64,000 bases of DNA from Pirellulales bacterium (GTDB lineage Bacteria; Planctomycetota; Planctomycetia; Pirellulales; PALSA-1355): contig JBBDNV010000128.1 of NCBI GenBank assembly GCA_040877415.1, positions 14,953 to 78,952 of the forward strand, written 5' to 3'. A program made the translations under genes and the position numbers. Positions 1,742-24,137 of the stretch are shown here, in pieces. The notes beneath the pieces were generated by a model, which was not told where the DNA came from, ran no database searches, and saw nothing but the letters and a program-made list of their open reading frames with translations. Each line of letters starts with the position of its first letter. Position 1 is the stretch's first letter.

Positions 1742-1860
1742 GGCAGGGTTTCTCCAAGTAGTCTGTCAAAGCGGAAACGGCAGGTGGAGGGCGCGGAAGC
1801 TAGCGGTTGAGGAGCAGGGTCAAAGTACGGTCTCCTAATATAGATGGAGCGTTGTCACAA

Positions 1861-1895
1861 GCAACAAAAATGTACGATTTCCAGGATTTTTTTGG
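1861..1895. promoter_or_regulatory. Variant copy of the AAAAAT..ATTTTT palindromic motif upstream of DUF1501 gene 1
   Basis: The sequence acaaaaatgtacgatttccaggattttttt lies about 170 nt upstream of the DUF1501 start. It has the same AAAAAT/ATTTTT arms as the four consensus copies at 22580, 24075, 29945 and 29973. Confidence 0.3.
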
Positions 1896-2058
1896 CGCAG
1901 GGCCTGCCCCTTGCGCCCGGCCCGGCGACGTGATTCGAGCGATTTCGTTTCTCACACCGGCCCCACCACGGCAAAGCCCGAAGATTTGCCGGCGGCGATC
2001 CAATGTTGTAGGCTGGCGGCCGGAATCCGCCGCTTCGAGATCAAGCTTTCGCCAGCCG

Positions 2059-3444
2059 ATGCCCGCCCAACCTCAGCATGCCCCAGCAGTCTCAACTGGC
2101 CGCGTCAACCGCCGCCAACTGCTGCGCGCCGGCGGCCTCGGCTTTCTGGGCCTCAACCTGGCACATTTGTTCGAGGCCGAAGCGCGGGCCGGCATGATCG
2201 GCGGCGCCGCGCTGGCGAAGAACCCGATCGAGTCGTGCATCTTGATGTTCTACTACGGCGGGCCGAGTCATCACGACACGTGGGACATGAAGCCACTGGC
2301 GCCGGCCGAAGTGCGGGGCGAATTCAAACCGATCGCCACCAGCGTGCCCGGCGTGCGCATCAGCGAACATCTGCCGCGGTCGTCACAGATCGTCGATCGC
2401 CTGGCCGTCGTTCGCGGCATGCACCACACGATGAGCAACCACAATGCGGCGGCCGTCGAGGCGCTGTGCGGCCGCACGCCGCTGAAGGGCGATCTCGAGC
2501 TATTGTCCAACGACCCGACGACCGACTTTCCGTGTTACGGCTCGGCGCTGACCTATTTGAAAGGCGGCACGCCGTCGGTCCCGCCGCACGTGGCGTTGCC
2601 GCACGTGATGTACAACGTTGTCAAACTCCCCGGGCAGACGGCCGGTTTCCTGGGCGCCGCCTATGAGCCGCTGCAAGTGACCAAGGACCCCAACGCGCCC
2701 GATTTCCGCGTCGCCGAAATCGAGCTGCCCTCCGGCCTCTCGCTGGGGGAATTGGAGAACCGCCGGGCCCTGCTGTCGCGCATCAACGCCCGGATGCCGG
2801 ACGACAGGGCGCAGGGCAACATGAACGCCTTTTACCGGCGGGCGTTCGACCTGTTGCGCTCCGACGCCGTGCGGCGGGCCTTCGACATCGGCCGGGAAAA
2901 CGTCCGTACGCGCGAGCGCTATGGCCGCAACATCCACGGGCAAAGCGCGCTCTTGGCCCGGCGACTAGTCGAATCCGGCGTCCGGTTCGTCAGCATATTC
3001 GACCGCGTGCGCAACGGGCCGAACAACTGGGACACCCACGACAACAACTTCGGACGCCTGAAAGACGATTTGCTGCCGCCGTGCGACACGGCCTTTTCGG
3101 CGCTTGTCGAAGATCTCGAGGCCCGCGGGCTGCTGGATTCGACGCTCGTCGTCATGCTGGGCGAATTCGGCCGCACGCCCAAGATCAACGGCGCGGGCGG
3201 CCGCGATCACTGGCCCAACTGTTATAGCGTCGTACTGGCAGGGGGCGGAATCGCGGGCGGGACGATGTACGGCGCCAGCGACAAATTGGGCGCTTACCCC
3301 GAAACCAATCCGGTCACCCCGGGCGATCTGGCCGCCACTATTTTCTGGCGATTCGGGCTCGATCCGGCCACCGAATTGCACGATCCGGCCGGCCGGCCAT
3401 TCCGCCTGGCGGTCGGCGAGCCGATTCACGGGCTGTTCGGCTAG
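2059..3444 (+). CDS. DUF1501 family protein (sulfatase-like fold) with a twin-arginine signal
   Basis: An internal ATG at 2059 gives MPAQPQHAPAVSTGRVNRRQLLRAGGLGFLGLNLA, with an RR motif and a hydrophobic stretch. The body matches DUF1501 (GGPSHHDTWDMKP, GEFGRTP, GRDHW). The ORF-track start at 1807 is a TTG extension. Confidence 0.85.
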   Translation: MPAQPQHAPAVSTGRVNRRQLLRAGGLGFLGLNLAHLFEAEARAGMIGGAALAKNPIESCILMFYYGGPSHHDTWDMKPLAPAEVRGEFKPIATSVPGVRISEHLPRSSQIVDRLAVVRGMHHTMSNHNAAAVEALCGRTPLKGDLELLSNDPTTDFPCYGSALTYLKGGTPSVPPHVALPHVMYNVVKLPGQTAGFLGAAYEPLQVTKDPNAPDFRVAEIELPSGLSLGELENRRALLSRINARMPDDRAQGNMNAFYRRAFDLLRSDAVRRAFDIGRENVRTRERYGRNIHGQSALLARRLVESGVRFVSIFDRVRNGPNNWDTHDNNFGRLKDDLLPPCDTAFSALVEDLEARGLLDSTLVVMLGEFGRTPKINGAGGRDHWPNCYSVVLAGGGIAGGTMYGASDKLGAYPETNPVTPGDLAATIFWRFGLDPATELHDPAGRPFRLAVGEPIHGLFG

Positions 3445-3504: not shown

Positions 3505-4185
3505 ATGTTTCGCCCTTGGTTGGTGGCCGGCTCGGCGGTGGCTCTGGCCGTCTCGGTGGCTGCTTCGGCACAAGCGCAGTTTCCGCGCGGGATGCGCTTT
3601 CCCGCGTCGTTGCAGGACGTCTTCATGCTGCGCAACGAAGCCGTGCGAAAGGAGCTCAACGTCAACGACGAGCAGCAGGCGGTGCTTGCCAGTCTGGCGG
3701 CAAAGTTGCAGCAGGACGCCTTCGAGATCATTTCCGGATTGCAGGATCTCACGCCCGAGGAGCAAAAGGAGGCGATGGCCGACGTGATGAAGATGGTCGC
3801 CGAAAAGGGCAAGGAAGTGAAGCAACAGGTCGATGGGATCCTGGACAAAACGCAAATCGAGCGGTTCAAAGAGCTGTCGCTCCAGTCCCGGGGCGCACAG
3901 GCGCTCGAGGACGACGAAATGGTCGCCGCTCTCGAAATCACCGACGAGCAAAAGAAGCAATTGGCCGGCATCCGCGAAGACGGTATGCAGGCCGTCCAGG
4001 AGGCGTTTCAAAAATTGCGGGGCGGCGGCAGCGACCAGGGAGACATCCGCAAGAAGATAATGGAAATGCGCAACCGGTTGTCCGACAAAGCCTTAACGGT
4101 GCTCACTCCCGAACAGCGCGAGCAATTCGAGAAAATGAAGGGAGCTAAATTCGACTTTCCGGCTGGACGTGGCTTCCCTTTTTAG
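3505..4185 (+). CDS. Secreted LTXXQ-motif (Spy/CpxP-like) periplasmic protein
   Basis: There is a strong SD (GAAGGAG) 7 nt upstream and a signal peptide MFRPWLVAGSAVALAVSVAASAQA. LTPEEQ and LTPEQREQFEKM motifs sit within a charged helical sequence. Confidence 0.6.
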   Translation: MFRPWLVAGSAVALAVSVAASAQAQFPRGMRFPASLQDVFMLRNEAVRKELNVNDEQQAVLASLAAKLQQDAFEIISGLQDLTPEEQKEAMADVMKMVAEKGKEVKQQVDGILDKTQIERFKELSLQSRGAQALEDDEMVAALEITDEQKKQLAGIREDGMQAVQEAFQKLRGGGSDQGDIRKKIMEMRNRLSDKALTVLTPEQREQFEKMKGAKFDFPAGRGFPF

Positions 4186-4315
4186 AACCGATATTCTATT
4201 TTACGAAACACGCCACTTGCCACTCGGGTAGTATTGATATCCCGCGCTACCCGACTCTCATGCACAAAGGGATTCCAGCGCACGTTCACTCGAGTAGATT
4301 AACCGAGGTGTTAAG

Positions 4316-6133
4316 ATGGGCAAATTTCGGCATCTAGCATTGATTGCGGCGATTGTCGGCTGCGCTTCGATCTCGATCGCTGCCGACTCTCCGATCGGCA
4401 AGAAGATCGACAGTTTTTCGCTGCCCGATTTTCACGGCAACAAGCATTCGCTGAACGACTACGAGGGAAAGCCGGTGGTCATAGCGTTTGTCGGCACCGA
4501 ATGTCCCCTGGCGAAGAACTACGCGCCGCGGCTCACGAGCCTGGCGGCCGAATTCTCGGAAAAGGGCGTGGCCTTCCTGGCCGTTAACGCCAATGTGCAG
4601 GATTCCCTGATCGAGGTCGGCAACTATGCCCGGGACTACAAGATCCCCTTCCCGCTGCTGAAGGACAACAACAACGTCGTGGCCGACACGATGGGCGCGG
4701 TGCGCACTCCGGAAGTCTTTCTATTGGACAAGGACCGGGTGGTGCGCTACTGGGGCCGCATTGACGATCAATACGGCTTCAAAACCGGCGCCGGCTACGT
4801 CAAGCCCAAGCTGAAAGAACGGTACCTCGCTGACGCCATCACCGAGGTGCTCGCCGGCAAGGAAGTCAGCCGGCCGGAGGTCGCGTCGGTGGGCTGTTTC
4901 ATCGGCCGCGCCACAAAGACCGAGCCCAAGGGCGAGGTGACCTACTCCAACCAAATCGCCCGCATCATCCAGAACAACTGCGTGGAATGTCACCGCGCGG
5001 GCGAAGTCGCTCCGTTTACGCTTCTGTCGTACGACGACGTGTCGGCCTGGGCCGATACGATTCGCGAAGTGGTCAGCGAGGGACGCATGCCCCCCTGGTT
5101 TGCCGATCCGCGCTTCGGCCACTTTATCAACGACGCCCGGCTGAGCGATGAGGACAAACAGCAGATTTTCGCCTGGATCGACAACGGCTGCCCGGAGGGC
5201 GATCCGAAAGATCTGCCCGAGCCGCGCAAATTCGTCGAAGGCTGGCAGATCGGCAAGCCCGACCAGATCGTCTACATGCGCGACGAACCCTTCGCGGTTC
5301 CGGCCGAAGGGGTGGTCGACTATCAGTACTTTTCGGTCGATCCGGGCTGGACCGAAGACAAGTGGATTGCTGCCACGGAATGCCGCCCCGGCAATCGTTC
5401 GGTGGTGCACCACATCATCGCGTTTTTGCAGCCGCCCGGTGACAAGGACGTGGGAGATCGCGGTGGGATCGGCGGTTATGCCCCGGGCATGACGCCCAAC
5501 GTTCCCCCGCCCGGCACGGCGATCTTCGTGCCGGCCGGCTCGAAGCTGGTCTTCCAGTTGCACTACACGCCCAACGGCGTCGAGCAGACCGATCGCAGCA
5601 TGGTCGGCATCAAGTTCGCCGATCGCAAGACGGTCAAGCAAATCGTCCGCGGCGGCCTGGTGGGCGACACCGGCTTCCGGATTCCGGCGGGCGACGCGAA
5701 CTACGAAGTCACGGCCCGGCACTTGTTCCTCAAAGACACGCTGCTGTTGAACCTGACGCCCCACATGCACCTGCGCGGCAAGGATTTCAAGTTCGAAGCC
5801 GAGTATCCCGACGGTAGGCGCGAAGTGCTGCTCGACGTGCCGAAGTACGACTTCAACTGGCAGCTTCGCTACATGCTGGTCGAGCCGAAGCTGATGCCCA
5901 AGGGCACCCGGTTGCACTGCACGGCCCACTTCGACAATTCGGCCGACAACCAGGCCAATCCCGATCCCACCGACACGGTCACCTTCGGCGATCAGACGTG
6001 GAACGAGATGATGTTCGGGTTTTACAGTTCGATCGATCCCAAGCAGGATCTGACCCAGGGCCTGGCCGACCGCGGCTCGGGTGACGACAAGGTTGCCGGC
6101 CAGACCGCGACCGAAACGACCGCCAAGAACTGA
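4316..6133 (+). CDS. Secreted three-domain protein: redoxin/AhpC-TSA thioredoxin fold, c-type cytochrome (CxxCH), and a PHM/DBH-like copper type II monooxygenase domain
   Basis: RBS GAGGTG and a signal peptide are present. The N-terminal domain has the redoxin signature VVIAFVGTECPLAKNY...FLLDKDRVV. The heme motif is CVECH. The C-terminal domain carries the histidines HH (NRSVVHHIIAF), H (QLHYTPNG), HxH (TPHMHLRGK) and Met (NEMMFGF), with spacing like the CuH/CuM sites of peptidylglycine monooxygenase. Confidence 0.7.
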   Translation: MGKFRHLALIAAIVGCASISIAADSPIGKKIDSFSLPDFHGNKHSLNDYEGKPVVIAFVGTECPLAKNYAPRLTSLAAEFSEKGVAFLAVNANVQDSLIEVGNYARDYKIPFPLLKDNNNVVADTMGAVRTPEVFLLDKDRVVRYWGRIDDQYGFKTGAGYVKPKLKERYLADAITEVLAGKEVSRPEVASVGCFIGRATKTEPKGEVTYSNQIARIIQNNCVECHRAGEVAPFTLLSYDDVSAWADTIREVVSEGRMPPWFADPRFGHFINDARLSDEDKQQIFAWIDNGCPEGDPKDLPEPRKFVEGWQIGKPDQIVYMRDEPFAVPAEGVVDYQYFSVDPGWTEDKWIAATECRPGNRSVVHHIIAFLQPPGDKDVGDRGGIGGYAPGMTPNVPPPGTAIFVPAGSKLVFQLHYTPNGVEQTDRSMVGIKFADRKTVKQIVRGGLVGDTGFRIPAGDANYEVTARHLFLKDTLLLNLTPHMHLRGKDFKFEAEYPDGRREVLLDVPKYDFNWQLRYMLVEPKLMPKGTRLHCTAHFDNSADNQANPDPTDTVTFGDQTWNEMMFGFYSSIDPKQDLTQGLADRGSGDDKVAGQTATETTAKN

Positions 6134-6152: not shown

Positions 6153-6200
6153 TCGTTCTTACGAGAGAGGCCGTCCGGGATTTCGGGCGGCCTCTCTCTT
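6153..6200 (+). terminator. Rho-independent terminator after the redoxin/cyt c/monooxygenase gene
   Basis: GC-rich hairpin gagagaggccg-tccgggatttcggg-cggcctctctc followed by ttttgcgcttt. Confidence 0.6.
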
Positions 6201-6323
6201 TTGCGCTTTCGGAGTCGCAGCTTCGCTTGACCTCCCGAGCGGGGATTTGTGTTGACTTTTCGCCCAAAATAGGGGCACAATAGCCTTCGGCGACTACTGG
6301 AACACGGAATGGAGGCTGGGGAC

Positions 6324-8222
6324 ATGCGATCTATCATGCGCGCTGTTGCCGTCTTCGCTTGCGTCGCCGTGAGTTTTCTTTACGGCCCCCCACTCGCTCG
6401 CGCCACAGAACCCACGTCCGCCGACACGCCCGAACAATTGGTGCGTGCGGCTCTCGAGTCGGAAGTTACAGGCGCCTCCGACGAGCGAGCGCGACTGCTG
6501 GCCGAAGCCCTTGCGCGCGATCCCAACTTCGCGCCGGCCCGCTGGCACTCGGGCTTCGTGCGCATCGGCGACGAGTGGATCCAGATCGACGACGTGCCCG
6601 GCCGCGTCGGCAACGACCCGCCACTGGCCGTCTATCGCCAGAAGCGCGACGCGCTGGTGGACACGGCCGACAATCACCGCGAGCTGGCCCGCTGGTGCCG
6701 CAAGAACCGCTTGAACGACGAAGAGCGCGTTCATTGGGCGAAGGTGCTGGAGTTCAACTCACAAGACGCCGAGGCACTTGCGGCGCTCGGATTGCAACTG
6801 TACGAAGGCCGCTTGATGACTCGGGCGCAGATTGAGAAGGCAAAGGTCGCGGCCGGCGAGCGGATGCGCGCCATGCGCAAGTGGCAGCCGCAACTGCTCA
6901 AGTGGCGCGCGGCCATCGAGCGCGGCGTTCCGAAGCGATTGGACGAGGCGCTGCGCGGCCTGAACGAACTGTCAGATCCCGAAGCCCTCGGGGCCTTGGA
7001 AACTGTGTTCGGCATGAGCGCCGACTCAGAAAGAACCAATCGGTTGAATTTGCTGTTGATTGAAGTTGCCGATCGGATTCACCACCCCGAGACAACGCAG
7101 GTGTTGTTGCGCCGGGCGGTCAATGCCGATTCGACGGACGTGCGTCTGGCAGCGTGCGAGGCGCTCAAAAGGCGACCGATGCACGCCTACGTGCCGCTGT
7201 TGATCGAGGCCATGCCCGGCTCGCTGTCGACGAAATTTCACATTTACACGCTGCCCAACGGCACCGTGATGCACGAGCACGAAATCCAGCTCAAGAACCG
7301 GCAAGGCACGGTTTCGATCACGTATGACTGGACGATTCATCCGACTGATCTGAGAGTGGCATCGGCCATTACTCCGCTGGCACTGGCCGGCGAATTGAAC
7401 AAGGCCGCGTCCATTGAAGCCGCTGCCCAAACCAGCGAGCAGCCGAATGGGCGGCTGCGCGAGCGGCTGCAATTCGTGCTGAAGTACACGACCGGTTTCG
7501 AAAGCGCCGACGACCCCGAGCTATGGCTCCGCCAATACAGCGAATACTACGGCTGGGGCATGCCCGATCAAGCGAAGAAAGACGTGCGCGTGTATGCCTG
7601 GCAATACGAAACTTATTTTCCGCTGCGGTCGCCCGAGGAGCAATCCAGCTCCAGCGGAACAGGGTTGACGGTCGCCCCGCGCAGCGAAAGTCCTCTGACG
7701 AGTCCCGGCTCTCGGCCCGTGTTTACGGCAATCTCGGGACCTGCGCTTACGCTTCGCGGCGAGTGCTTTCCGGCCGGAACGACCGTGCTGTCAATCAGCG
7801 GTCCGAAACCGATTGAGACCCTAAAGCCGGGCGATCGTGTACTGGCGCAGGATATCGCCACCGGCGAGCTCGCCTATAAGACCGTGCAACAGCGTACGCT
7901 GCGCCGCAGCGTCAAGCTCATGAATATCCGCTGCGGTCCGCGGACGATTTCCGCGACCCCAGGACATCCGTTTTGGGTCGTTGGCCACGGCTGGCAAGTG
8001 GCAAAACACCTCCAGATCGGCGCGCGTTTGCGCGGACTCGAGGAGGACACGGTGGTCGACAAGATCGAAGAACTTCCACCGCAGGAGGTTTACAACCTGA
8101 TCGTCAGCGACTTTGCCACCTTTTTTGTTGGCCCCCAGCGGCTGTTCGTGCACGACGATTCGCTGTTGAGTGAAACTTCGGTCCTGGTGCCGGGGCTCGC
8201 CGTGCAAACCGAGGCTCCTTGA
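6324..8222 (+). CDS. Secreted HEAT/PBS-lyase-like repeat protein with a C-terminal Hint (bacterial intein-like, BIL) domain
   Basis: A second ATG at 6324 has GGAGG 8 nt upstream. The signal peptide is MRSIMRAVAVFACVAVSFLYGPPLARA. The C-terminal roughly 150 aa start at Cys (GECFPAGTTVLSISGPKPIETLKPGDRVLA) and end with the Hint block VYNLIVSDFATFFVGPQRLFVHDDS. Confidence 0.7.
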   Translation: MRSIMRAVAVFACVAVSFLYGPPLARATEPTSADTPEQLVRAALESEVTGASDERARLLAEALARDPNFAPARWHSGFVRIGDEWIQIDDVPGRVGNDPPLAVYRQKRDALVDTADNHRELARWCRKNRLNDEERVHWAKVLEFNSQDAEALAALGLQLYEGRLMTRAQIEKAKVAAGERMRAMRKWQPQLLKWRAAIERGVPKRLDEALRGLNELSDPEALGALETVFGMSADSERTNRLNLLLIEVADRIHHPETTQVLLRRAVNADSTDVRLAACEALKRRPMHAYVPLLIEAMPGSLSTKFHIYTLPNGTVMHEHEIQLKNRQGTVSITYDWTIHPTDLRVASAITPLALAGELNKAASIEAAAQTSEQPNGRLRERLQFVLKYTTGFESADDPELWLRQYSEYYGWGMPDQAKKDVRVYAWQYETYFPLRSPEEQSSSSGTGLTVAPRSESPLTSPGSRPVFTAISGPALTLRGECFPAGTTVLSISGPKPIETLKPGDRVLAQDIATGELAYKTVQQRTLRRSVKLMNIRCGPRTISATPGHPFWVVGHGWQVAKHLQIGARLRGLEEDTVVDKIEELPPQEVYNLIVSDFATFFVGPQRLFVHDDSLLSETSVLVPGLAVQTEAP

Positions 8223-8239
8223 AACCGGCCCGCGATTCC

Positions 8240-9472
8240 ATGATCTTCTTCCGGGCATGCGTCGTCGCTGTAATCGTCTCGCTGGCCGCCGTTGCGCGGG
8301 CCGGACAGGGCGACGCGAGGGATGGCGCGGCGCGGCTGCTGGAGATGGCCGAAAAGAACACGCCGCCGGCCGTCGCCGCGGCCCGCGCCCGGTACGAACA
8401 GCTTAAGAAGGCAAATCCCGACGACGCGCGGATCGACTACGTTTACGGCGTCGCGCTGGTGAACCAGCACCTCTACGGCGAAGCGCTGCCGCTTGTGGCG
8501 CGATACCTGGCCCGCCACGCGGACGACGGCAACGCTATCCGCACGAAGATCTGGATCGAGCTTCACGATCGCCAATATGCGCCGGCCCTCAAAGACGCCG
8601 TCAGCCTGAGCCGGCTATTTCCCAAACGTTCCGGCGCGAAGCCGAATCCCGATTTCGAAGAGGCCGCGCGTTTCCTGGGAGCGGTTTTCGGCTACCTGGA
8701 GCTGGCCAGGCCCGAAGCCGTCGACGAGAAGCTCCGCGCGGCGGGCAAGAACCAGGTGTTGTCGGCGCTCGGCGATGCGTATCTGAGCCCGTTCGAAGAG
8801 GGGCGCCAAAAGGTCTCCGGCCGGCTGGCCGAGCTCGACAAAGAGCAAAAGGAGAAGCAAGACCAGGCGGCCGAGACGCTTGACGAGCGCCAAGGCAAAG
8901 TGAAAGAGGCGATTGCCGACGATCAACAGAAAATCGCCGCGGGCACTGAGACCATCCAGGCCAGCGCCGAGCAACTGCGCGACGCCCAGCGGCAGTTCGC
9001 CGTGCTGAGCACGCAGCTAAATTCGCTCGAAAAGGATCGCGCTCGATTGAGTGCGCAAATCGTGACGGTCCAAACACAACTGCTCGATCTTCAGAAGGAC
9101 GTCAAGCTCGATGCCAAACGCAGCCCGACCGTTTCCATCGACACGGCCGCGAAACTCGCGCAACTGAGCGTGATACTGGCCGGCCTCGACCGACAAGCTT
9201 TCGCGATGGACGAGAAGATCCTCGCCCTGCGGACTCAAGCGACCCAATTGGGCGCCAAGGGCAACAAGGAATCGCAAACGCTGGCCGCAAACCGGGCCGC
9301 GGTCGGGCAGGTCGAGCGGCGCGCCAAGGCGCTGGAAAACCAGGTCCGCCGGCTCGAGGCCAAACGGCCCGTGCGCCGCGCGCCGACGGCCGAAATGAAG
9401 AAGTTTTCCACCTACCTGTCCTTCCCGTTCGAGGAAGAGAAACAGCGCGTCCTCGGCTGGTTCGAAGAGTAG
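8240..9472 (+). CDS. Secreted or membrane-anchored coiled-coil protein with an N-terminal TPR-like segment
   Basis: The ATG at 8240 gives MIFFRACVVAVIVSLAAVARA. The track start TTG 8219 overlaps the upstream stop. A long heptad-like Q/E/K/A/L-rich region follows (LDKEQKEKQDQAAETLDERQGKVKEAIADDQQKIAAG...). It is translationally coupled to the upstream Hint gene. Confidence 0.55.
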   Translation: MIFFRACVVAVIVSLAAVARAGQGDARDGAARLLEMAEKNTPPAVAAARARYEQLKKANPDDARIDYVYGVALVNQHLYGEALPLVARYLARHADDGNAIRTKIWIELHDRQYAPALKDAVSLSRLFPKRSGAKPNPDFEEAARFLGAVFGYLELARPEAVDEKLRAAGKNQVLSALGDAYLSPFEEGRQKVSGRLAELDKEQKEKQDQAAETLDERQGKVKEAIADDQQKIAAGTETIQASAEQLRDAQRQFAVLSTQLNSLEKDRARLSAQIVTVQTQLLDLQKDVKLDAKRSPTVSIDTAAKLAQLSVILAGLDRQAFAMDEKILALRTQATQLGAKGNKESQTLAANRAAVGQVERRAKALENQVRRLEAKRPVRRAPTAEMKKFSTYLSFPFEEEKQRVLGWFEE

Positions 9473-9655
9473 CGATCTGTCGTTTGTGCTAAACCGCATG
9501 CGCGGCGGTGAGCCGCGGCGTTTGCTCACGCCGGCGGCGCGTGTTGCTTGCTCCGGTGGGGCGGGGTACAGTCAAGGTTTCGGTTGTCACGAGCGGGAAA
9601 CTCCCGCGCCGAAGTGAATCTTGTTACCGATTTGCCCAGCCTCGCCGTACGCTCG

Positions 9656-11551
9656 ATGCCGCCCAGCCGTGCCGTTGGAATCGATTTGGGGACGACCCGC
9701 GCCGCCCTGGCTCGCATCGACGAGCCGGCCCGAAGCGCGATGATTCGCGACGCCCAGGGCGACCTGTTGATTCCCAGCGTCGTATTCTTCGAAGACGACG
9801 AGCTGGTTTGCGGCCGCGCCGCCAAACTGGCCGCGGTCGCGCGGCCGGACCGGGCGGCGGAGTTCTTCAAACGCGATTTGGGCCAGGCCGCGTACTCTCG
9901 GGCCATCGGCGGCGAGCTGCTGTCGGCCGAGCTGATCGAAGCCTGCCTGCTCAAAAAGCTCGAAGCCGAGTTGGCCGACCAGGGCATTGCAAAACCGGCC
10001 GTCGCGCTCTCCATGCCCGCCAGCTTCAATCAAGCACAGCGCCGGGCCCGGCTCGATGCCGCCAAGATCGCGCGCGTCGAGCTGTTGGGCACGATCAACG
10101 ACCCGCTGGCCGCGGCCCTGAGCTACGCCGAAAGCCAGGGCTATTTGCACCCATCGACGCCCGACAAGCCGGGCTGCCGCGTGCTGGTATTCGACCTGGG
10201 CGGCGGCAAGCTGGACGTGGCCATCGTGGAAATCAAGCCGGGCCGGCTGCGCACCATGGCCGTCGGCGGCAACGCGAAGCTGGGTGGCCGCGATTGGGAC
10301 CTCCGGCTCGCCGAACATCTGGCCGAGCAGTTTGCCAAGGAATTCGGCCAGGATCCGCGCCACGACATGACCAGCGTGCGGCGGCTGTTGGAAAGCGCCG
10401 AAGAAGCCAAACAATCGCTCTCGGCCCGGCAACAGGCGCGCGTGCAGGTCGAGCGCGGCAAGAGCGCGGCCGCCATCGTCGTCACGCGGCAGGCCTTCGA
10501 GGAGATGACCGCCGACTTGCTCGACGAGGCTGCCGCGATCACCGAAGGCATCGTGGCCCGGGCCGGAATGGCCTGGCGCGACGTGTCCGGGTTGCTGTTG
10601 GTCGGAGCCGCCACGCGGATGCCGATCGTGGCCAAACGGCTCGAAGAGCTGACCGGGCTGGTGCCGGCTGCCGCCGTCCATGCCGACGAAGCCGTGGCTC
10701 GCGGCGCGGCACTGTATGCCGAATGTCTGCTCGCGGCGCGCGAAGGCCGCCAAACGGACCTGCACGTGGCGATCACCGACCTGACGGTCCATAGCCTGGG
10801 CTTGGAGTGGAATGACCCGCGCACCGGACGCGTCGAAAACGTGGTCTTGATCGCGCGCGGCTCGGAGCTGCCGTGCGGCACCGTCGCCGCAGCCACGACC
10901 GACACGGCCGGCCAGTCGTCCCTGGTGATTCAACTCTTGGAGGGCGAAAGCCGCGCCGCCGACCAGTGCGCGCGAATCGCGCTGTTGACGGTCCGCGATC
11001 TGCCCGACGGGCTGCCCAAGGGAACTCAGATCGACGTGCACTATCAATTCACCGCCGAGGGCCGGCTGCAAGTGAGAGCCCGGCTGCCGCGGAGCGGACA
11101 ATCGCTGCCGATCAGCGTGCGGCGCGAACAGGGCTTGACCGAAAGCCAGATTTCCGATTGGCAACAGCTCATCGCGCGCGGCCAGGGGCTGCGGGCCATC
11201 CACGCGCTGTTGCCCGAGCACCGGCGACAGCGCGAGGCCCTGGCGGCGGCTCAGCCCCCTGGGCCGCGCGCGGCGAGCTCGGCCGGGCCGCCGGCCTTGC
11301 CGAACGAGACGCCCGCCGACGAGGAATTTACTCTGGAGACCGGCAGCGACGCGACCGCCCGGCGCCTGAAGAAACGCAGAATGACGCCGCGCCGATTGGC
11401 CATCATGCTCGGCGGATACGTCGTCTCCGCCTTGGTCGGCACGGCCATAGGCTACTATATATTGATGAGGATCGATCCCAGCTACAACTGGTGGCACCTG
11501 CGGCTGCCCGGGCTGCGCGACGCGCCGGCCTCGAGCGCCGACGTTCATTGA
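9656..11551 (+). CDS. Hsp70-family (DnaK-like) ATPase with a divergent C-terminal region and a C-terminal transmembrane anchor
   Basis: The ATG at 9656 gives MPPSRAVGIDLGTT (phosphate-1 motif). It also has DLGGGKLDVAIV (phosphate-2) and GAATRMPIV (adenosine motif). The C-terminal hydrophobic helix is LAIMLGGYVVSALVGTAIGYYILM. The track ORF start at 9548 is an upstream extension. Confidence 0.75.
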   Translation: MPPSRAVGIDLGTTRAALARIDEPARSAMIRDAQGDLLIPSVVFFEDDELVCGRAAKLAAVARPDRAAEFFKRDLGQAAYSRAIGGELLSAELIEACLLKKLEAELADQGIAKPAVALSMPASFNQAQRRARLDAAKIARVELLGTINDPLAAALSYAESQGYLHPSTPDKPGCRVLVFDLGGGKLDVAIVEIKPGRLRTMAVGGNAKLGGRDWDLRLAEHLAEQFAKEFGQDPRHDMTSVRRLLESAEEAKQSLSARQQARVQVERGKSAAAIVVTRQAFEEMTADLLDEAAAITEGIVARAGMAWRDVSGLLLVGAATRMPIVAKRLEELTGLVPAAAVHADEAVARGAALYAECLLAAREGRQTDLHVAITDLTVHSLGLEWNDPRTGRVENVVLIARGSELPCGTVAAATTDTAGQSSLVIQLLEGESRAADQCARIALLTVRDLPDGLPKGTQIDVHYQFTAEGRLQVRARLPRSGQSLPISVRREQGLTESQISDWQQLIARGQGLRAIHALLPEHRRQREALAAAQPPGPRAASSAGPPALPNETPADEEFTLETGSDATARRLKKRRMTPRRLAIMLGGYVVSALVGTAIGYYILMRIDPSYNWWHLRLPGLRDAPASSADVH

Positions 11552-11594: not shown

Positions 11595-13187
11595 ATGACG
11601 AACGAATCACCGCCCGCGGTCGGAATTGATCTGGGCACCACCTATACGGCCGTGGCGTATATCGACGATACGGGCAGGCCGATTACGCTGGTGAACGCCG
11701 AAGGCGACCTGGTGACGCCCAGCGCGGTATTGTTCGAGGGCGATACGGCGATCGTGGGCAAGGAGGCGCTCAAGGCGATTGCCACGGAAGCGGATCACGT
11801 GGCGCAATGCGCGAAGCGCGAGTTGGGCGAGCGGGCATTCCACAAAGTATTCGACGGCCGCCGCTTTCCGCCCGAGGCTCTGGAAGCGTTCATTCTCAAC
11901 AAGGTGCGTCAGGACGCCATCCGCCACATCGGCGACTTCCGCAAAGTGGTGATCACCGTGCCGGCCTATTTCGATGAAGTGCGCCGCAAGGCCACGCAAG
12001 ACGCGGGGCACATGGCCGGCTTCGAAGTGCTCGACATCATCAACGAGCCGACTGCCGCGGCCATTGCCCACGGCTTTTTGAAAGGATTTCTCAACCGCGA
12101 CGGCGCCGCCAACGAGCCGCGCAAGCTGCTGGTCTACGACCTGGGCGGCGGCACGTTCGACGTGACGGTGATGGAGATTCGCGGGCACGACTTTGCGGCC
12201 TTGGCCACCGACGGCGATGTGCAGCTCGGCGGCCAGGACTGGGATCAAAGGCTCGTGGACTACGTGGCCGAGGAGTTCAAGCTGACCTACAAGCTCGACC
12301 CGCGCGAGGAGTCCAATACGGCCGGCCGGCTGTGGCGCGAATGCGAAGACGCCAAGCGCACGCTGTCGGCCCGCAGCAAGGTGTCGATCAGTTGCGATTA
12401 CAGGAGCCAGGCGCTGCGCGTCGAGGTGACGCGCGAAAAATTCGAGGAAATCACCCAGGATCTGCTGGACCGCACGAGATTCACCACCAGGCAGACGCTG
12501 CAGGCGGCCGGGATGACCTGGTCCGATCTGGACTACGTGCTGATGGTCGGCGGCTCCACGCGCATGCCGATGGTTGCCCGAATGCTCCGCGAGCTGACGC
12601 GCAAGGAGCCCGATGCGTCGGTCTCGGTCGACGAAGCCGTGGCTCACGGCGCGGCGCTGCACGCCGCGATCATCCTGGCCCGCACGCGCGGCGAAACTCC
12701 CGTCCTGAACATCAAGAACGTCAATTCGCACAGCCTGGGCGTGGTGGCCAGCGATCCGCGCACCGATCGCCGCCGCAACGCCATCCTGATTCCGCGCAAC
12801 ACTACGCTGCCGGTGACCGCCAAGCGCGTGTTTCGCACGCAGAAGGCCAACCAGAAATCGATTCTCGTGCAGATCGTCGAAGGCGAGAGCGCCTCTCCCG
12901 AGGATTGCTCGCAAATCGGCAAGTGCGTGGTCCGCGATCTCCCGCCCGACCTGCCGGCCCAGACGCCGATCGAAGTCTGGTTCGAGTATCAGGAGAACGG
13001 CCGCTTGAACGTGCGCGTGATCGTCGCCGGCACGGGCCGCGAGCTCCAGCACGAGATCGCGCGCGAGAACAGCATGACGACCGAACAGCTCGACGCCTGG
13101 CGTCTGTTTATCGGCGGCCAGTCGATGATCAGCCACTCGCAACTTCAACCCGACGACGATGATCTGACGATCGTCGACGAGCTGTAG
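11595..13187 (+). CDS. Hsp70-family ATPase paralog (short, about 530 aa, lid-less)
   Basis: It carries VGIDLGTTYTAVAY, NEPTAAAIAHGF, YDLGGGTFDV and VGGSTRMPMV. It starts 43 nt after the previous Hsp70-like gene. Its antisense shadow is the 945-aa ORF 11607..14444. Confidence 0.8.
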   Translation: MTNESPPAVGIDLGTTYTAVAYIDDTGRPITLVNAEGDLVTPSAVLFEGDTAIVGKEALKAIATEADHVAQCAKRELGERAFHKVFDGRRFPPEALEAFILNKVRQDAIRHIGDFRKVVITVPAYFDEVRRKATQDAGHMAGFEVLDIINEPTAAAIAHGFLKGFLNRDGAANEPRKLLVYDLGGGTFDVTVMEIRGHDFAALATDGDVQLGGQDWDQRLVDYVAEEFKLTYKLDPREESNTAGRLWRECEDAKRTLSARSKVSISCDYRSQALRVEVTREKFEEITQDLLDRTRFTTRQTLQAAGMTWSDLDYVLMVGGSTRMPMVARMLRELTRKEPDASVSVDEAVAHGAALHAAIILARTRGETPVLNIKNVNSHSLGVVASDPRTDRRRNAILIPRNTTLPVTAKRVFRTQKANQKSILVQIVEGESASPEDCSQIGKCVVRDLPPDLPAQTPIEVWFEYQENGRLNVRVIVAGTGRELQHEIARENSMTTEQLDAWRLFIGGQSMISHSQLQPDDDDLTIVDEL

Positions 13188-13283
13188 GCGGGCCCACGGC
13201 ACCGGGCGCGATTGCACCTGCCGGCTGGGGCGATTTATACTAACCGGGTCGCTGCGTGCTCGTTCCGCCAGGGAATTCCCTCC

Positions 13284-16280
13284 ATGAAAATCTTTCCCCG
13301 CGGCACCGCGATCGCCGCATGGGGCTTTTGCGTGCTGGCGGCGTGGGCCGCGCCCGCTTGCGCCCAATTGCCGCCGGATAAAGAGCTGGCGACGCTGCGT
13401 GCCGCGCCCCAGTTCGAGGTCTCGCTGTTTGCGTCCGAGCCCCTGATCACCAACCCCGCGGCCATCGACGTCGATACGCAGGGCCGCTTGTGGGTGGCTG
13501 AAATCCAGTGGTATCGCGGAGCCGCCAAGAGCCTGCCCGCCGACAAGATCAAGGTGCTGGAAGATACCGACGGCGACGGCGTGGCCGACAAAGCCACCGT
13601 TTTTGCCGACGACGTTTTCGCCCCGATGAGCATTTGCGTGGCCGGCGAGCGGGTGTTCGTCGCCACGAGTCCCGACCTGTGGGTCTATGAAGACAAGAAT
13701 GGCGACCTGGTGGCCGACGGCCCGCCCCAAAAGCTGCTCACCGGCTTCGGCGGCAAGAACCACGATCACGGCGCGCACAGCCTCGTGCTCGGGCCCGACC
13801 ACAAGTGGTGGATGTCGCACGGCGACCGGGGCTTTGACGTCCGTGGCACCGACGGCTCGCGCATCAAGTATCAGTGGGGCGCCGTCGTGCGCGGCGAATT
13901 GGACGGCAGCCGGCTCGAAACCGTGGCGGTCAATTTCCGCAATCCGTACGAAGTCTGCGTCAGCTCGTTCGGCGAAGCATTCGTAAGCGACAACGACAAC
14001 GACGGCAACGAAAGCGTGCGCATCTGCTGGATTCTCGAAGGGGGCAACTACGGCTGGTTCGGCGGCCCGCCGTTTGGAAAGCAAGAACTCGACGATCAAC
14101 TCCCCGCCGATACGCCGTTCCGCCGGCATTGGCACTTCCGCGGCCACGTGCCGGGCTTCGTGCCGGCCACGCTGGTCACCGGCTTCGGCTCGCCCTCGGG
14201 CATATGCTTTTACGAGAGCGACGCCTTTGGGCCGAAGTACAAAAACGTTCCGCTGCACGCCGACGCCGGCCCGCGCGAATGTCGCGTCTATCGCCACGAG
14301 CCGGCCGGCTTCGGCATGAAAGCCACGAGCGAAATATTCCTCGGCAACCAGGGGGACGATTACTTTCGACCCGACGACGTTTGCGCGGCGCCCGACGGAC
14401 GGCTGTACGTCGCCGACTGGTACGACGGCGGAGTCGGCGGACACGCTTACAACAATCCCGACCAGGGCCGCATCTTCGTGCTTGCGCCCAAGGGGAAAAA
14501 ACTTTCACGCCGCGAAAAACCGGGGCCGTACGCAAGCATCGCCGATGCCGTCGAAGGCCTCAAAAGCCCCAACCTGGCCACGCAATATCTCGCCCGCGAG
14601 CGGCTGCTGGCCGAAGGTCCTGCGAGCGTGCCGGCACTCGGCGAATTGTTGGCCGGCCCCGAACCGAACCATCGGGCCCGGGCCTTGTGGCTGCTGGACC
14701 GCATCGGGGACGGCGCGCGCGAATCGGTCGAGAGGCAACTAAAATCTCCGGAACCGGCGTTTCGCGCATTGGCGGTGCGCATCTTGCGCCGACACGGAAA
14801 CCAGCACGGCGATGCAATCCTGGCACTGGCCGGTGACTCGTCAGACGAAGTGCGCCGCGAAGTACTGTTGGCCACGCGCTGGCTCGACGGCGAGAAGGCC
14901 GAAGCGGCGCTGGCCCAATTCGCCGCCGACTACGACGGGACCGACCGTTATCTGCTGGAAGCCGTCAACATTGCCGCGGGCGATCGCCGCGAAGCGCTCC
15001 TGGCCCGATTGGAAGCACAAGGCCCGCTGTCGATCGAGCAATTTCCGCTGTTGCAACTGCTCAGTCCTAAGCGGGCGGCCGCCCAACTGGTCGATCGGCT
15101 CCGAGCGGACCATCTCGACGAAAAGACGGCCCGCGCGCTCATCGAAACCGCGGTGAACATTCCGGCGCCCGAGGTCGGCTGGGGTCTGTTGAAGCTGGCC
15201 GAGAATCGGGAACTTTCGGCCGCGCTGCGCCGCGCGGCGCTCGGCAAGGTGGCCGCGGGCGCCAGCCGCGGCGGCGTTTGGGGAGCCATGTCGCGCGATC
15301 CAAAGCTCACGGCCGCGCTAGGTGCCCTATTGGCCGACGACGAGCTGCGCACCACGGCATTGGCAGCCGTGGACGCGCTGCGATTGCGGAAGCTCTGCGA
15401 CAACGTGCTGGCGATCGCGCGCTCGGCCAATCTCGACCCGGCCCAGCGCGAACAAGCCATCGACGTGGCCGCGAACCTCAAGCCCTCGGGCATCGCGCCG
15501 GCCTTGCGCGAGCTTTTGTCCGATCCCGAGCCGGCGGTTTCCGGCGCCGCCTTGCGACGGCTGGTCGATTTGCAAGACATCAAGAGCTTGCGCGAAATAC
15601 TGGCAAGCGACAAATTCTCCGCCGACGCGCGCCGGCGAGCCGTTGACCAGGCCGTCGAAACCACGGCCGGAGCGATCCTGCTCGTGCGGCTGATCGACGA
15701 AGACCGCCTTTCGGACGAATTGAAACGAGCCGTGTTGACCAAGGCCGCCTCGCACGCCGATTCGAACGTCCGCGGGCTGTACGAAAAATTCATCCCCGAA
15801 GACCAGCGGTCGAAGAAACTGGGCAGCGCCATTTCGGCCGACGAGATCCTGGCCCTTGCGGGCGACGCGAACCGCGGGCGGCTGATCTTCTACCAGAGCT
15901 CGGCTGCGGGGTGCCAGCAGTGTCACGCCGTGCAGGGGTTCGGCGGAACGACCGGGCCCGAGCTATCGAATATCGGCAAGAAGTACGAACGAGGGGCGCT
16001 GTTGGAGACCATTCTCGATCCGTCCAAGGCCATCGCCCCGGAATACATACCGTACTTGCTCGAAACGAAAGGCGGCCAGGTGTACGCCGGCTTTCTGGTG
16101 GAGCGCCGGGACGACCGGGTCGTGCTGCGGGACGTCAAGAACAAGACCTGGCGCGTGGCGACCGACGAGGTCGAAGCCCTCGTTGGGCAGCAAAAATCGC
16201 TGATGCCGGAGTTGATATTAAGCGAAGTGACAGCACAGGACGCGGCAGACCTCTTGGCATTTCTCGCAAGCCTCAAGTAA
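13284..16280 (+). CDS. PVC-type membrane-bound dehydrogenase domain / HEAT repeat / c-type cytochrome (CxxCH) protein
   Basis: The ATG at 13284 gives the signal peptide MKIFPRGTAIAAWGFCVLAAWAAPACA. A beta-propeller-like N-terminus (LWVAEIQWY, DTDGDGVADK) is followed by HEAT-like repeats. The C-terminal heme motif is CQQCHAVQGFGGTTGPEL. Confidence 0.8.
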   Translation: MKIFPRGTAIAAWGFCVLAAWAAPACAQLPPDKELATLRAAPQFEVSLFASEPLITNPAAIDVDTQGRLWVAEIQWYRGAAKSLPADKIKVLEDTDGDGVADKATVFADDVFAPMSICVAGERVFVATSPDLWVYEDKNGDLVADGPPQKLLTGFGGKNHDHGAHSLVLGPDHKWWMSHGDRGFDVRGTDGSRIKYQWGAVVRGELDGSRLETVAVNFRNPYEVCVSSFGEAFVSDNDNDGNESVRICWILEGGNYGWFGGPPFGKQELDDQLPADTPFRRHWHFRGHVPGFVPATLVTGFGSPSGICFYESDAFGPKYKNVPLHADAGPRECRVYRHEPAGFGMKATSEIFLGNQGDDYFRPDDVCAAPDGRLYVADWYDGGVGGHAYNNPDQGRIFVLAPKGKKLSRREKPGPYASIADAVEGLKSPNLATQYLARERLLAEGPASVPALGELLAGPEPNHRARALWLLDRIGDGARESVERQLKSPEPAFRALAVRILRRHGNQHGDAILALAGDSSDEVRREVLLATRWLDGEKAEAALAQFAADYDGTDRYLLEAVNIAAGDRREALLARLEAQGPLSIEQFPLLQLLSPKRAAAQLVDRLRADHLDEKTARALIETAVNIPAPEVGWGLLKLAENRELSAALRRAALGKVAAGASRGGVWGAMSRDPKLTAALGALLADDELRTTALAAVDALRLRKLCDNVLAIARSANLDPAQREQAIDVAANLKPSGIAPALRELLSDPEPAVSGAALRRLVDLQDIKSLREILASDKFSADARRRAVDQAVETTAGAILLVRLIDEDRLSDELKRAVLTKAASHADSNVRGLYEKFIPEDQRSKKLGSAISADEILALAGDANRGRLIFYQSSAAGCQQCHAVQGFGGTTGPELSNIGKKYERGALLETILDPSKAIAPEYIPYLLETKGGQVYAGFLVERRDDRVVLRDVKNKTWRVATDEVEALVGQQKSLMPELILSEVTAQDAADLLAFLASLK

Positions 16281-16321
16281 ACTTCCCACCCGAGGCCCTC
16301 CTGTTCCAAGGTAACCCGATC

Positions 16322-24015: not shown

Positions 24016-24074
24016 GGTTGTGATCTGTCGGACGGTGCGACCATCGCTGCACCCCGGCAGCGTCAGATTCTGGC

Positions 24075-24098
24075 CGCTCCTGGTCAAAAATCGGTCAT
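24075..24098. promoter_or_regulatory. 21-bp palindromic motif, copy 2 (tcaaaaatcggtcatttttcgaca), about 60 nt upstream of the DUF1501 gene 2 start
   Basis: This is the best palindrome of the family. Its position is consistent with an operator or promoter element. Confidence 0.5.
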
Positions 24099-24137
24099 TT
24101 TTCGACACGGCAAGGGGAACAAGCAAAGGACCGTAAT

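Follow-up and report, generated by a model that had tools for sequence, protein, structure and literature searches.

The gene at 4316-6133 on the + strand of the window (the whole stretch of 64,000 nucleotides of Pirellulales DNA that was analysed) starts with an ATG and encodes a protein of 605 residues followed by a stop codon. Reading of this frame together with domain matches indicated that a signal-like N-terminus, a redoxin, a c-type cytochrome and a PHM-like domain are fused in a single ORF, and the three domain assignments proposed by a first-pass annotation of the same DNA all held. A Shine-Dalgarno-like GAGG, read from the sequence, lies 7 nt before the ATG (4305-4308, + strand), as this annotation had indicated. 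It had also given the gene its own terminator hairpin. Folding of the downstream sequence revealed a terminator-like structure on the + strand (6163-6202), made of a 16-bp G+C-rich stem and a 4-nt loop followed by UUUU, and an 82-nt stretch with the 6163-6198 hairpin had a folding energy of -41.7 kcal/mol (z = -4.15). This part of the claim was therefore upheld for the hairpin itself but not by a consensus terminator scan, which passed over it on account of the short U-run (4 U). Based on the ribosome-binding site, the terminator-like hairpin and the fact that the neighbouring genes were not conserved in 80 loci, we propose that the gene is transcribed on its own.

The GC-rich sequence (63% GC) explains an antisense ORF of 402 aa (4721-5929), which was rejected as a shadow. 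The real gene is the + strand ORF; searches with its C-terminal domain as a query returned more than 7,600 proteins with a best E of 3.5e-166. No second copy of the gene was found in the window by tblastn. The full-length AF2 model of the protein had a mean pLDDT of 91.9 and a pTM of 0.86, the latter value suggesting that the predicted modules have a fixed arrangement relative to each other. The C-terminal tail (aa 581-605; 6056-6130, + strand) was modelled with low confidence (pLDDT <50 at aa 599-605) and is not conserved.

The annotation had described the product as a signal-peptide protein, and the N-terminus, MGKFRHLALIAAIVGCASISIAADSP, does resemble an export signal. This putative signal covers aa 1-23 (4316-4384, + strand) and its residues 2-15 form a low-pLDDT helix in the model. 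Cleavage by SPase I probably occurs after SIA22, as judged by the residues at this site; IVGC16 also fits a lipobox, and C16 varies among the aligned relatives. We propose that this three-part redox protein is exported and periplasmic.

Predicted copper ligands and fold of the C-terminal domain

The N-terminal PHM/DBH-like beta-sandwich corresponds to aa ~301-440 (5216-5635, + strand) and contains the CuH-type residues H365, H366 and H416. The C-terminal sandwich, assigned by HMMER, hhalign, fold comparison and conservation, corresponds to aa ~441-580 (5636-6055, + strand); it contains the CuM-type residues H483, H485 and M565, together with a set of family-specific invariant residues (R487-G488, W515-Q516, D540-N541-S542 and N548-P549). 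The HH...H...HxH...M pattern of peptidylglycine/dopamine-beta monooxygenases recognised by the first-pass annotation is thus made of H365/H366, H416, H483/H485 and M565. These residues were invariant in a 52-sequence alignment, and each of the six was present in at least 190 of the 191 domain sequences taken from genomes and from 50%-identity representatives. Such a conservation indicates that the pattern is not due to chance.

The first-pass annotation had named a mismatch between this pattern and the CuH and CuM ligands in a profile alignment as what would refute its claim, and the alignments did not refute it. When the family profile was compared with rat PHM 36-356, hhalign paired all six residues with the PHM ligands (probability 86%, E 5e-6, 251 aligned columns). 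At the CuH site, VVHHII was aligned with TVHHML (PHM H107/H108) and FQLHYT with LQVHYG (H172); at the CuM site, PHMHLRGK was aligned with VHTHHLGK (H242/H244) and NEMMF with DEMCN (M314). An independent HMMER profile produced the same alignment at PHM H172 and at the HxH motif, and matched the family VHH and the histidine of the HY motif with the CuH ligands of DBH. The comparison with PHM structures, also suggested by the annotation, agreed with the profile alignments: two consecutive beta-sandwich domains with PHM topology were found, and the top 31 PDB matches returned by Foldseek were all PHM or DBH, with E values of about 1e-12 and TM scores of about 0.6.

Profile searches recommended at the same time recovered the redoxin and the cytochrome but not the copper domain. 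No match to the Cu-monooxygenase models PF01082 and PF03712 was found in the 605-aa protein even at E <= 10, the domain alone (aa ~301-590) gave zero matches against Pfam and NCBIfam, and phmmer searches of the PDB with the C-terminal domain returned none. Sub-threshold Pfam matches were detected among 52 relatives, 23 of which matched PF03712 (best 4.5e-4) and 8 PF01082 (best 5.2e-3). PHM and DBH were reached by profile and fold methods only.

The residues that bind the substrate in PHM are replaced. PHM R240 corresponds to T481 (M, F, T or S in relatives) and N316 to F567 (I, V, N or F); the equivalent of Y318 is F569, a position that stays aromatic (Y, F or W). These replacements indicate that the substrate is not a peptide with a C-terminal glycine and, since the positions of T481 and F567 vary, the chemistry could differ from hydroxylation.

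The heme domain and the distribution of the family

Immediately upstream, aa 206-300 (4931-5215, + strand) form a mono-heme c-type cytochrome domain matched by Pfam Haem_bd and Cytochrome_CBB3. The Haem_bd model (PF14376) spans C222-V-E-C225-H226 with 28.9 bits for a cut-off of 27, and the Cytochrome_CBB3 match extends around the same motif (aa 213-288). C222, C225, H226 and M258 were conserved in 52/52 aligned sequences; M258 is part of an invariant RMPPW motif and is the probable distal axial heme ligand. No significant PDB match was found for this domain. A CxxCH motif preceded HH at a fixed distance, 140-147 aa upstream, in 88 of the 89 diverse 50%-identity representatives and in 77 of 80 genome loci. 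Judged by these sequences, the heme and copper domains are an obligate core.

The family is very large (about 10,000 clusters when grouped at 50% identity), and its nearest sampled relative is encoded by a Planctomycetia MAG (79% identity over the Cu domain). The fusion of signal, redoxin, cytochrome c and Cu domains is its standard planctomycete architecture and is not confined to the source genome. Many paralogues are found per genome, and some are organised in tandem arrays. At the position of the C-terminal tail, relatives carry extensions with EF-hand, GAF-like, CBM48, TPR, GDSL or beta-propeller domains. The redoxin module is an optional, mostly planctomycete addition: it is missing from acidobacterial short forms, a redoxin-less heme-Cu core is also found in Gemmataceae, and this core is equally conserved in the short forms. 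The module is therefore dispensable for the core and, with about 30% of relatives being devoid of it, is not a general electron source.

Clustering of all neighbouring genes across 80 loci identified no operon partner conserved in more than 10 loci, and no stand-alone redoxin was found adjoining the short-form loci. In one relative, a region homologous to the gene at 8219-9472 follows the Cu domain in frame. This Rosetta-stone link was not relied on; the region opens with what seems to be the signal peptide of the neighbour itself, so the apparent fusion may reflect adjacency and a lost stop codon, or an assembly error. Many family members are currently named "alkyl hydroperoxide reductase", "thiol-disulfide isomerase" or "redoxin domain-containing protein" in databases, and no account of PHM-like or cytochrome-fused enzymes from bacteria was found in the literature searched. 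To our knowledge, and in agreement with this literature, PHM/DBH-type enzymes have been studied in animals only, as ascorbate-dependent enzymes.

Possible electron flow and proposed role of the redoxin module

We consider, with a confidence slightly better than even, that the protein is an exported three-module enzyme in which a PHM-like, ascorbate-independent copper monooxygenase is fed by the fused cytochrome c and accompanied by an accessory redoxin. The two-sandwich domain would bind two separate coppers, one transferring electrons at CuH (H365, H366, H416) and the other activating O2 at CuM (H483, H485, M565), where O2 would be reduced and a substrate oxidised, most likely via C-H hydroxylation. 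The two electrons needed per turnover would arrive one at a time via the fused His/Met mono-heme cytochrome c and not from ascorbate; with a cytochrome fused to the enzyme and a predicted periplasmic location, dependence on ascorbate appears unlikely. The self-contained electron relay put forward by the first-pass annotation is, from the domain content, a reasonable inference. Conserved partner genes provided no pathway hint in the 80 loci, which we count against this explanation, together with the failure of the Pfam and NCBIfam copper-domain models to recognise this protein.

The lack of conserved biosynthetic or catabolic neighbours is equally what would be expected if no organic substrate were hydroxylated at all. 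As in copper nitrite reductases fused to a cytochrome c, the heme, CuH and CuM could pass electrons from the respiratory chain to O2, superoxide, H2O2, nitrite or NO, making the protein a copper oxidase or reductase. The loss of the PHM substrate-binding residues points in this direction, the fixed heme-Cu pairing suits a pure electron-transfer enzyme just as well, and the fold matches include PHM crystals with nitrite, azide or CO at copper. However, the CuM-type His2Met site and the cleft between the two sandwiches are retained exactly, and the paralogues, tandem arrays and varied accessory binding domains (CBM48, TPR, beta-propeller, GDSL) better fit a diversification of substrates. We therefore regard a copper oxidase or reductase as unlikely.

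In Planctomycetes, the monooxygenase proposed above has a further module directly before its heme domain. This thioredoxin-fold redoxin (aa 24-205; 4385-4930, + strand) was identified by Pfam, PDB and alignment searches and contains C63 (in GTEC63PLA), C194 (in VGC194FIGR) and R130-T131-P132, all invariant; both cysteines were kept in 52/52 aligned sequences. Its label as an AhpC/TSA-type domain in the first-pass annotation is true only at the Pfam level, where AhpC-TSA matched aa 27-145 (E 2e-24, 86.3 bits for a cut-off of 26) and Redoxin gave an E of 1.4e-16. The closest PDB sequences were 3u5r (3.5e-21), 2cvb (8.7e-19) and 2ywi (1.1e-15), which share the CP...GC.I cysteine pair with the module and superimpose on it with Foldseek TM scores of 0.80-0.82. 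Like the proteins of this group, the module has a single CP motif and a distal GC.I cysteine carried by a C-terminal extension of ~60 residues. The title of entry 2ywo, "reduced", implies that the cysteine pair is redox-active. For the PDB codes of these redoxins, literature searches yielded no more than a methods paper and a study that took 2YWI as a modelling template. When the module alone was used as a query, mostly short or truncated gene calls were recovered and other fusion partners were not established.

Two better known assignments were rejected. The module is not a canonical peroxiredoxin: C63 (GTEC63P) sits at the position of the first Cys of the ResA CxxC instead of in a PxxxT/SxxC context, and scores for the NCBIfam Prx equivalogs were far under their cut-offs for the 605-aa protein. 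In 3u5r and 2ywi a Cys occupies the position of the invariant R130, indicating that the peroxiredoxin Arg does not characterise the family. Membership of the ResA/CcmG group was rejected on the active site, which is CPLA (C63-P-L-A66) and not CxxC; the second ResA Cys aligned with A66, a position occupied by A, V or G in relatives. The ResA model NF002854 was nevertheless the best named match (68.7 bits for a cut-off of 170, E 5.8e-19), and ResA entries in the PDB matched the module at 1e-12 to 1e-15.

The C63/C194 module is most likely an accessory two-electron input, which would link a periplasmic thiol-reducing pathway to the heme. Direct electron transfer from a dithiol to a heme in the absence of a flavin is unusual, and counts against this role. 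A second possibility is that the redoxin provides peroxide or thiol protection in a class of enzymes that leaks H2O2. In its full form, this alternative describes a thiol peroxidase that clears the H2O2 produced by uncoupled copper turnover and takes no part in the electron supply. The Pfam matches to AhpC-TSA and Redoxin agree with such an activity, an optional module is what would be expected of accessory protection, and 2ywi has been handled in the literature as a peroxiredoxin-like protein whose resolving Cys is C-terminal (PMC3091736). Against it stand the position of C63, which is that of the first thioredoxin CxxC cysteine and not that of a peroxidatic Cys, the Cys found in place of R130 in 3u5r and 2ywi, and the lack of an evident reductant for the resulting disulfide. 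These observations make a protective peroxidase rather improbable.

Electrons could also flow through the whole protein from thiols, C63/C194 oxidising substrate thiols as in QSOX and the heme and two coppers acting as an electron sink to O2. The Cys pair is kept without exception wherever the redoxin is present, only 28 residues separate C194 from the heme motif, a very short linker, and the model is compact across its domains (pTM as above). The domain order also resembles fusions of thioredoxin to an oxidase such as QSOX. However, the redoxin-less core of Acidobacteria and Gemmataceae is just as conserved, so the function of the core cannot depend on thiol chemistry, and the short-form loci have no neighbouring stand-alone redoxin. 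A thiol oxidase is accordingly a reading to which we give little credence. That the redoxin only keeps the adjacent CxxCH reduced for heme attachment, as a built-in apocytochrome reductase of the ResA/CcmG type, is highly improbable despite ResA being its best named match, since CPLA lacks a CxxC, short forms mature without the redoxin and it would be wasteful for thousands of proteins to keep a domain that is used a single time, for maturation.

Returning to the cytochrome-fed monooxygenase, we tentatively extend it to the family as a whole, a generalisation to which we assign somewhat less than an even chance. The proteins would form a large, undescribed bacterial branch of PHM/DBH in which ascorbate is replaced by a hard-wired cytochrome c, with the addition of a dithiol module in Planctomycetes. 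Periplasmic thiol or respiratory electrons would drive the O2-dependent hydroxylation of extracytoplasmic substrates, specific to each paralogue by means of accessory domains (CBM48, TPR, EF-hand, GAF-like, GDSL or beta-propeller). If correct, this would provide a tractable model, free of ascorbate, in which to study the long-debated transfer of electrons from CuH to CuM, and would add periplasmic oxygenases of a new class to Planctomycetota and Acidobacteriota, phyla that are abundant in soil and water. It would also correct database names that overlook the probable catalytic domain, and give the 2CVB/3U5R/2YWI redoxin group its first functional context.

Comparison with known systems

The animal relatives of the copper domain make amidated peptide hormones and noradrenaline. 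With PHM, the core of PAM (1PHM, 1OPM, 1SDW), the 3-His CuH and His2Met CuM sets align residue for residue, and the spacing of the ligands is similar (50/67/80 residues here and 64/70/70 in PHM), at a sequence identity of about 16%. The two differ in the triad R240/N316/Y318, which is T481/F567/F569 here, and in their cysteines: PHM has five disulfides, whereas the Cu domain described here has only two Cys, which are not conserved. Unlike PHM, the protein is bacterial, predicted to be exported, and fused to a c-type cytochrome that presumably replaces ascorbate. DBH (4ZEL), tyramine beta-monooxygenase and MOXD1 are also among the closest known enzymes, and the VHH and HY motifs of the family match the CuH ligands of DBH. 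DBH also has an extra N-terminal domain ahead of its copper core. This domain, DOMON, is a heme-binding fold in other proteins; in contrast, the N-terminal partner found here is a class-I-like cytochrome c with a covalent heme, and there is no dimerisation domain.

The redoxin module is about 30% identical over its whole length to TTHA0593 (2CVB/2YWO), SMc02350 (3U5R) and the GK protein 2YWI, with the same CP...GC.I pair and C-terminal extension. Those are stand-alone, single-domain proteins from structural genomics, whereas the module described here is joined to a cytochrome c. With ResA, TlpA and CcmG it has in common the thioredoxin fold, the position of the nucleophilic Cys (C63) and the cis-Pro TP motif, but Ala or Val stands in place of the second Cys of their CxxC, and C63 has its partner Cys 131 residues further downstream. 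The delivery of single electrons by a heme domain to an exported copper site is known from cytochrome-c-fused copper nitrite reductases and from the cytochrome domain of cellobiose dehydrogenase, which serves LPMOs. The copper folds of these enzymes (cupredoxin and LPMO) are unrelated to the present family, and the likeness is a functional analogy only, without homology.

Gene structure and genomic context

The gene under study is an ATG-initiated ORF (4316..6133, +) encoding a protein of 605 aa. The first-pass annotation had proposed a Shine-Dalgarno sequence and a terminator hairpin of its own, and both were recovered: GAGG lies 7 nt before the ATG (4305-4308, +), and a hairpin with a 16-bp G+C-rich stem followed by UUUU (6163-6198) starts 30 bases past the stop codon. 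The 82-nt stretch containing this hairpin folded at -41.7 kcal/mol (z = -4.15), a value equalled by none of 200 shuffles; a simple consensus terminator scan missed the hairpin because its U-run is short. The gene looks monocistronic, since the preceding gene stops at 4185 and the following one begins at 6309. An antisense ORF (4721..5929) was rejected as a gene; with a window GC content of 63%, it is an ordinary shadow of the + strand ORF, which is real by homology. The signal sequence contains a lipobox-like IVGC ending at C16 (aa 13-16, window 4352-4363). The closest homologue (P0064) has IVSC, and this cysteine is replaced by A, V, G, I or L across the family; lipoprotein status appears doubtful because C16 varies.

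The neighbours encode a DUF1501 protein (1807-3444, +), an LTXXQ-motif protein (3505-4185), a HEAT/HINT-domain protein (6309-8222, +), a TPR-like secreted protein (8219-9472, +), two Hsp70-like proteins (9548-11551 and 11595-13187, +) and a DUF7133-HEAT-cytochrome c protein (13212-16280, +), a typical planctomycete set. Among the relatives, only L001, the nearest at 75% identity across its whole length, showed this gene order, and no neighbour family was present in more than 10 of the 80 genome loci compared, indicating that there is no conserved operon.

The HEAT-repeat protein has a pretoxin-HINT domain at its C-terminus; the stop codon of its gene and the start of the following one (8219) overlap, and in L001 the protein is represented by two paralogues in tandem. 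The TPR-like/coiled-coil protein encoded 2 kb downstream of the gene under study has an orthologue at the equivalent relative position in L001 (8538-9845) and is 40% identical to an in-frame region directly after the Cu domain in another relative (L004 441-3056, 877-aa ORF). As that region opens with an apparent signal peptide of the neighbour itself, the L004 arrangement may reflect adjacency and a lost stop, not a true fusion. The Hsp70/MreB-like genes are adjacent and divergent, 3' of the TPR-like gene; this pair was not conserved beside relatives of the gene under study. A second large DUF7133-HEAT-cytochrome c ORF (15911-19333, +) probably starts further downstream than 15911, because as listed it overlaps the first by ~370 nt. 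The window also holds a second DUF1501 protein (22618-24126, -) and a Ser/Thr protein kinase fused with a periplasmic-binding-protein (Peripla_BP_5/6) domain (25546-27960, -).

The C-terminal PHM-like domain

Pfam searches identified AhpC-TSA (aa 27-145, 2e-24) and Redoxin (1.4e-16), with Haem_bd and Cytochrome_CBB3 matches around C222-V-E-C225-H226. No Pfam or NCBIfam match covered aa ~300-605, and a phmmer search of the PDB with the C-terminal part was empty. Searched alone, this part retrieved >7,600 proteins from a 90%-clustered collection (best E 3.5e-166) and, from a 50%-clustered library, 10,090 representative clusters at E <= 1e-3, 5,968 at <= 1e-10 and 1,528 at <= 1e-30. Source names of the relatives ('alkyl hydroperoxide reductase', 'thiol-disulfide isomerase', 'redoxin domain-containing protein', 'mono/diheme cytochrome c family protein', 'hypothetical') overlook the C-terminal domain.

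An AlphaFold2 model of aa 291-605 (pLDDT 90.7, pTM 0.82) was compared with the PDB using Foldseek; the best 31 matches were all PHM or DBH (E ~1e-12), and the modest TM of ~0.6 is what a protein with two domains and a hinge should give. H365, H366, H416, H483, H485 and M565 were invariant in a 52-sequence alignment and kept in at least 190 of 191 domain sequences (the 80 genome loci plus 50%-identity representatives). For ligand alignment, the rat PHM catalytic-core sequence was reconstructed and then verified against PDB entries. Using hhalign, the family profile matched PHM 36-356 over 251 columns (probability 86%, E 5.2e-6). All six ligands paired: VVHHII with TVHHML (H107/H108) and FQLHYT with LQVHYG (H172) at CuH, the electron-transfer copper; PHMHLRGK with VHTHHLGK (H242/H244) and NEMMF with DEMCN (M314) at CuM, the O2-activating copper. 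An hmmsearch against PHM paired H172 and the HxH positions identically (E 1.8e-5, one target), a PDB profile search aligned VHH and HY of DBH in a weak match (E 0.92 database-wide), and sub-threshold matches to PF03712 and PF01082 occurred in 23/52 and 8/52 relatives. The failure of the His/Met pattern to align, which the first-pass annotation had named as refuting evidence, was thus not observed; the PHM-like assignment stands, and the redoxin, heme and PHM-like domains were rightly read in the first-pass annotation.

PHM R240 anchors the substrate carboxylate. Its equivalent is T481, variable among relatives (M/F/T/S); the N316 equivalent also varies (I/V/N/F), and that of Y318 is aromatic. 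The family has invariant motifs of its own (HxHxRGK, FNWQ, DNSxxNxxNP). Because these substrate-residue equivalents differ, the substrate is predicted to be other than peptidyl-glycine. Accessory modules in relatives comprise EF-hand pairs, a GAF-like domain (~180 aa), CBM48/AMPK1_CBM, TPR arrays, a GDSL/SGNH hydrolase, a BamB-like beta-propeller and an N-terminal BlaR1-type M56 membrane domain. This variety fits a diversified enzyme family with differing targets or localisations better than a single housekeeping function. A pure oxidase or reductase acting on a small acceptor is a minor possibility, as the Cu site, the cleft and the range of accessory domains all favour organic substrates.

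Several paralogues per genome are frequent. Acidobacterial and other MAGs contain tandem arrays of 3-5 short-form paralogues, which have the heme and PHM-like domains without the redoxin (five copies in L076 323-7879, four in L051 12-7909, both from Acidobacteria, and L006 2386-7113); these arrays suggest a lineage-specific expansion of short forms. In P0241, a metagenomic representative of 1251 aa, the whole redoxin-heme-Cu unit is duplicated head-to-tail in one polypeptide.

An obligate heme domain and an optional redoxin

In 77/80 loci the HH motif is preceded by CxxCH at a distance of 141-145 residues (of the remaining three, two were truncated or without the upstream part and one had a variant HH context) and at 140-147 residues in 88 of the 89 50%-identity representatives whose upstream part was long enough to judge. 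Judged from these sequences, the pairing of the PHM-like domain with the heme domain is obligate. C222, C225, H226 and M258 were invariant; M258, inside an RMPPW motif, is the likely sixth heme ligand. The domain had no close solved relative in the PDB. Its RMP and W..NGCP.G motifs (window 4931-5215) aligned weakly (family profile, E 0.044) with a C-terminal region, devoid of heme, in AsqI, a fungal tyrosinase-like protein (5yy2/5yy3); this region may be a degenerate version of the domain in another copper oxidase, only a curiosity here. The full-length AlphaFold2 model (605 residues, pLDDT 91.9, pTM 0.86) was confident as a whole, which suggests a defined inter-domain packing.

The redoxin was present in 54/80 loci, essentially Planctomycetota, and in 62/89 representatives; in ~24/80 loci (Acidobacteriota and one Gemmataceae MAG) the signal peptide runs straight into the heme domain. 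C63 (GTEC-P), C194 (GC-IGR) and R130-T131-P132 were invariant in every redoxin-bearing member. C194 is missing from the short forms and thus belongs to the redoxin module. As only 28 residues lie between C194 and C222, the Cys pair should be tethered near the heme domain. The closest solved structures, SMc02350 (3u5r, 3.5e-21), TTHA0593 (2cvb/2ywo, 8.7e-19) and a Geobacillus protein (2ywi, 1.1e-15), share both cysteines and a ~60-residue C-terminal extension with the window redoxin (TM 0.80-0.82). All are uncharacterised structural-genomics proteins, for which no functional study was found in the literature searched. Of the two entries for TTHA0593, one bears the title 'reduced', which implies a redox-active pair. 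In one paper (PMC3091736), 2ywi served as a peroxiredoxin-like template in which the C-terminal cysteine was the 'resolving' one.

Aligned with ResA, C63 occupies the first (nucleophilic) cysteine of CxxC and A66 the second, which sets the module apart from canonical peroxiredoxins and CxxC oxidoreductases alike. With C63 away from the peroxidatic position, a protective thiol peroxidase module seems unlikely. We give less credence to a QSOX-like thiol oxidase, since redoxin-less forms exist, and a ResA-like helper maturing the heme in cis is very improbable, CxxC being absent and the short forms maturing without a redoxin.

Proposed mechanism and relation to PHM and DBH

The best-supported reading, which we hold at somewhat better than even, is an exported, ascorbate-independent copper monooxygenase of the PHM/DBH type. 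Electrons would enter at the fused His/Met heme c, which would hand them on to CuH, and CuM (His2Met) would activate O2 for oxidation of the substrate. The planctomycete redoxin would be an accessory, most plausibly a two-electron input from a periplasmic thiol-reducing system, because a dithiol gives exactly two electrons, the need of one monooxygenase turnover; protection against peroxide would be its alternative role. The sequence and model comparisons establish the fold, the match and conservation of the ligands, the constant pairing with heme, the optional redoxin with its invariant Cys pair and the autonomy of the gene, whereas metal occupancy, the chemistry, the direction in which electrons flow and the part played by the redoxin are inferred.

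The window protein is an ordinary family member and its fusion the standard planctomycete architecture, so the interest rests with the family and not with this locus. A full-text literature search of incomplete coverage found no description of a bacterial PHM-like or cytochrome-fused enzyme; superfamily-level database assignments may exist. The C-terminal domain shares its fold and Cu ligands with PHM and DBH. It scores below the curated sequence thresholds, and the residues with which PHM binds its substrate are missing. We therefore place it within the PHM/DBH superfamily as a distant bacterial branch and regard it as an orthologue of neither PHM nor DBH.
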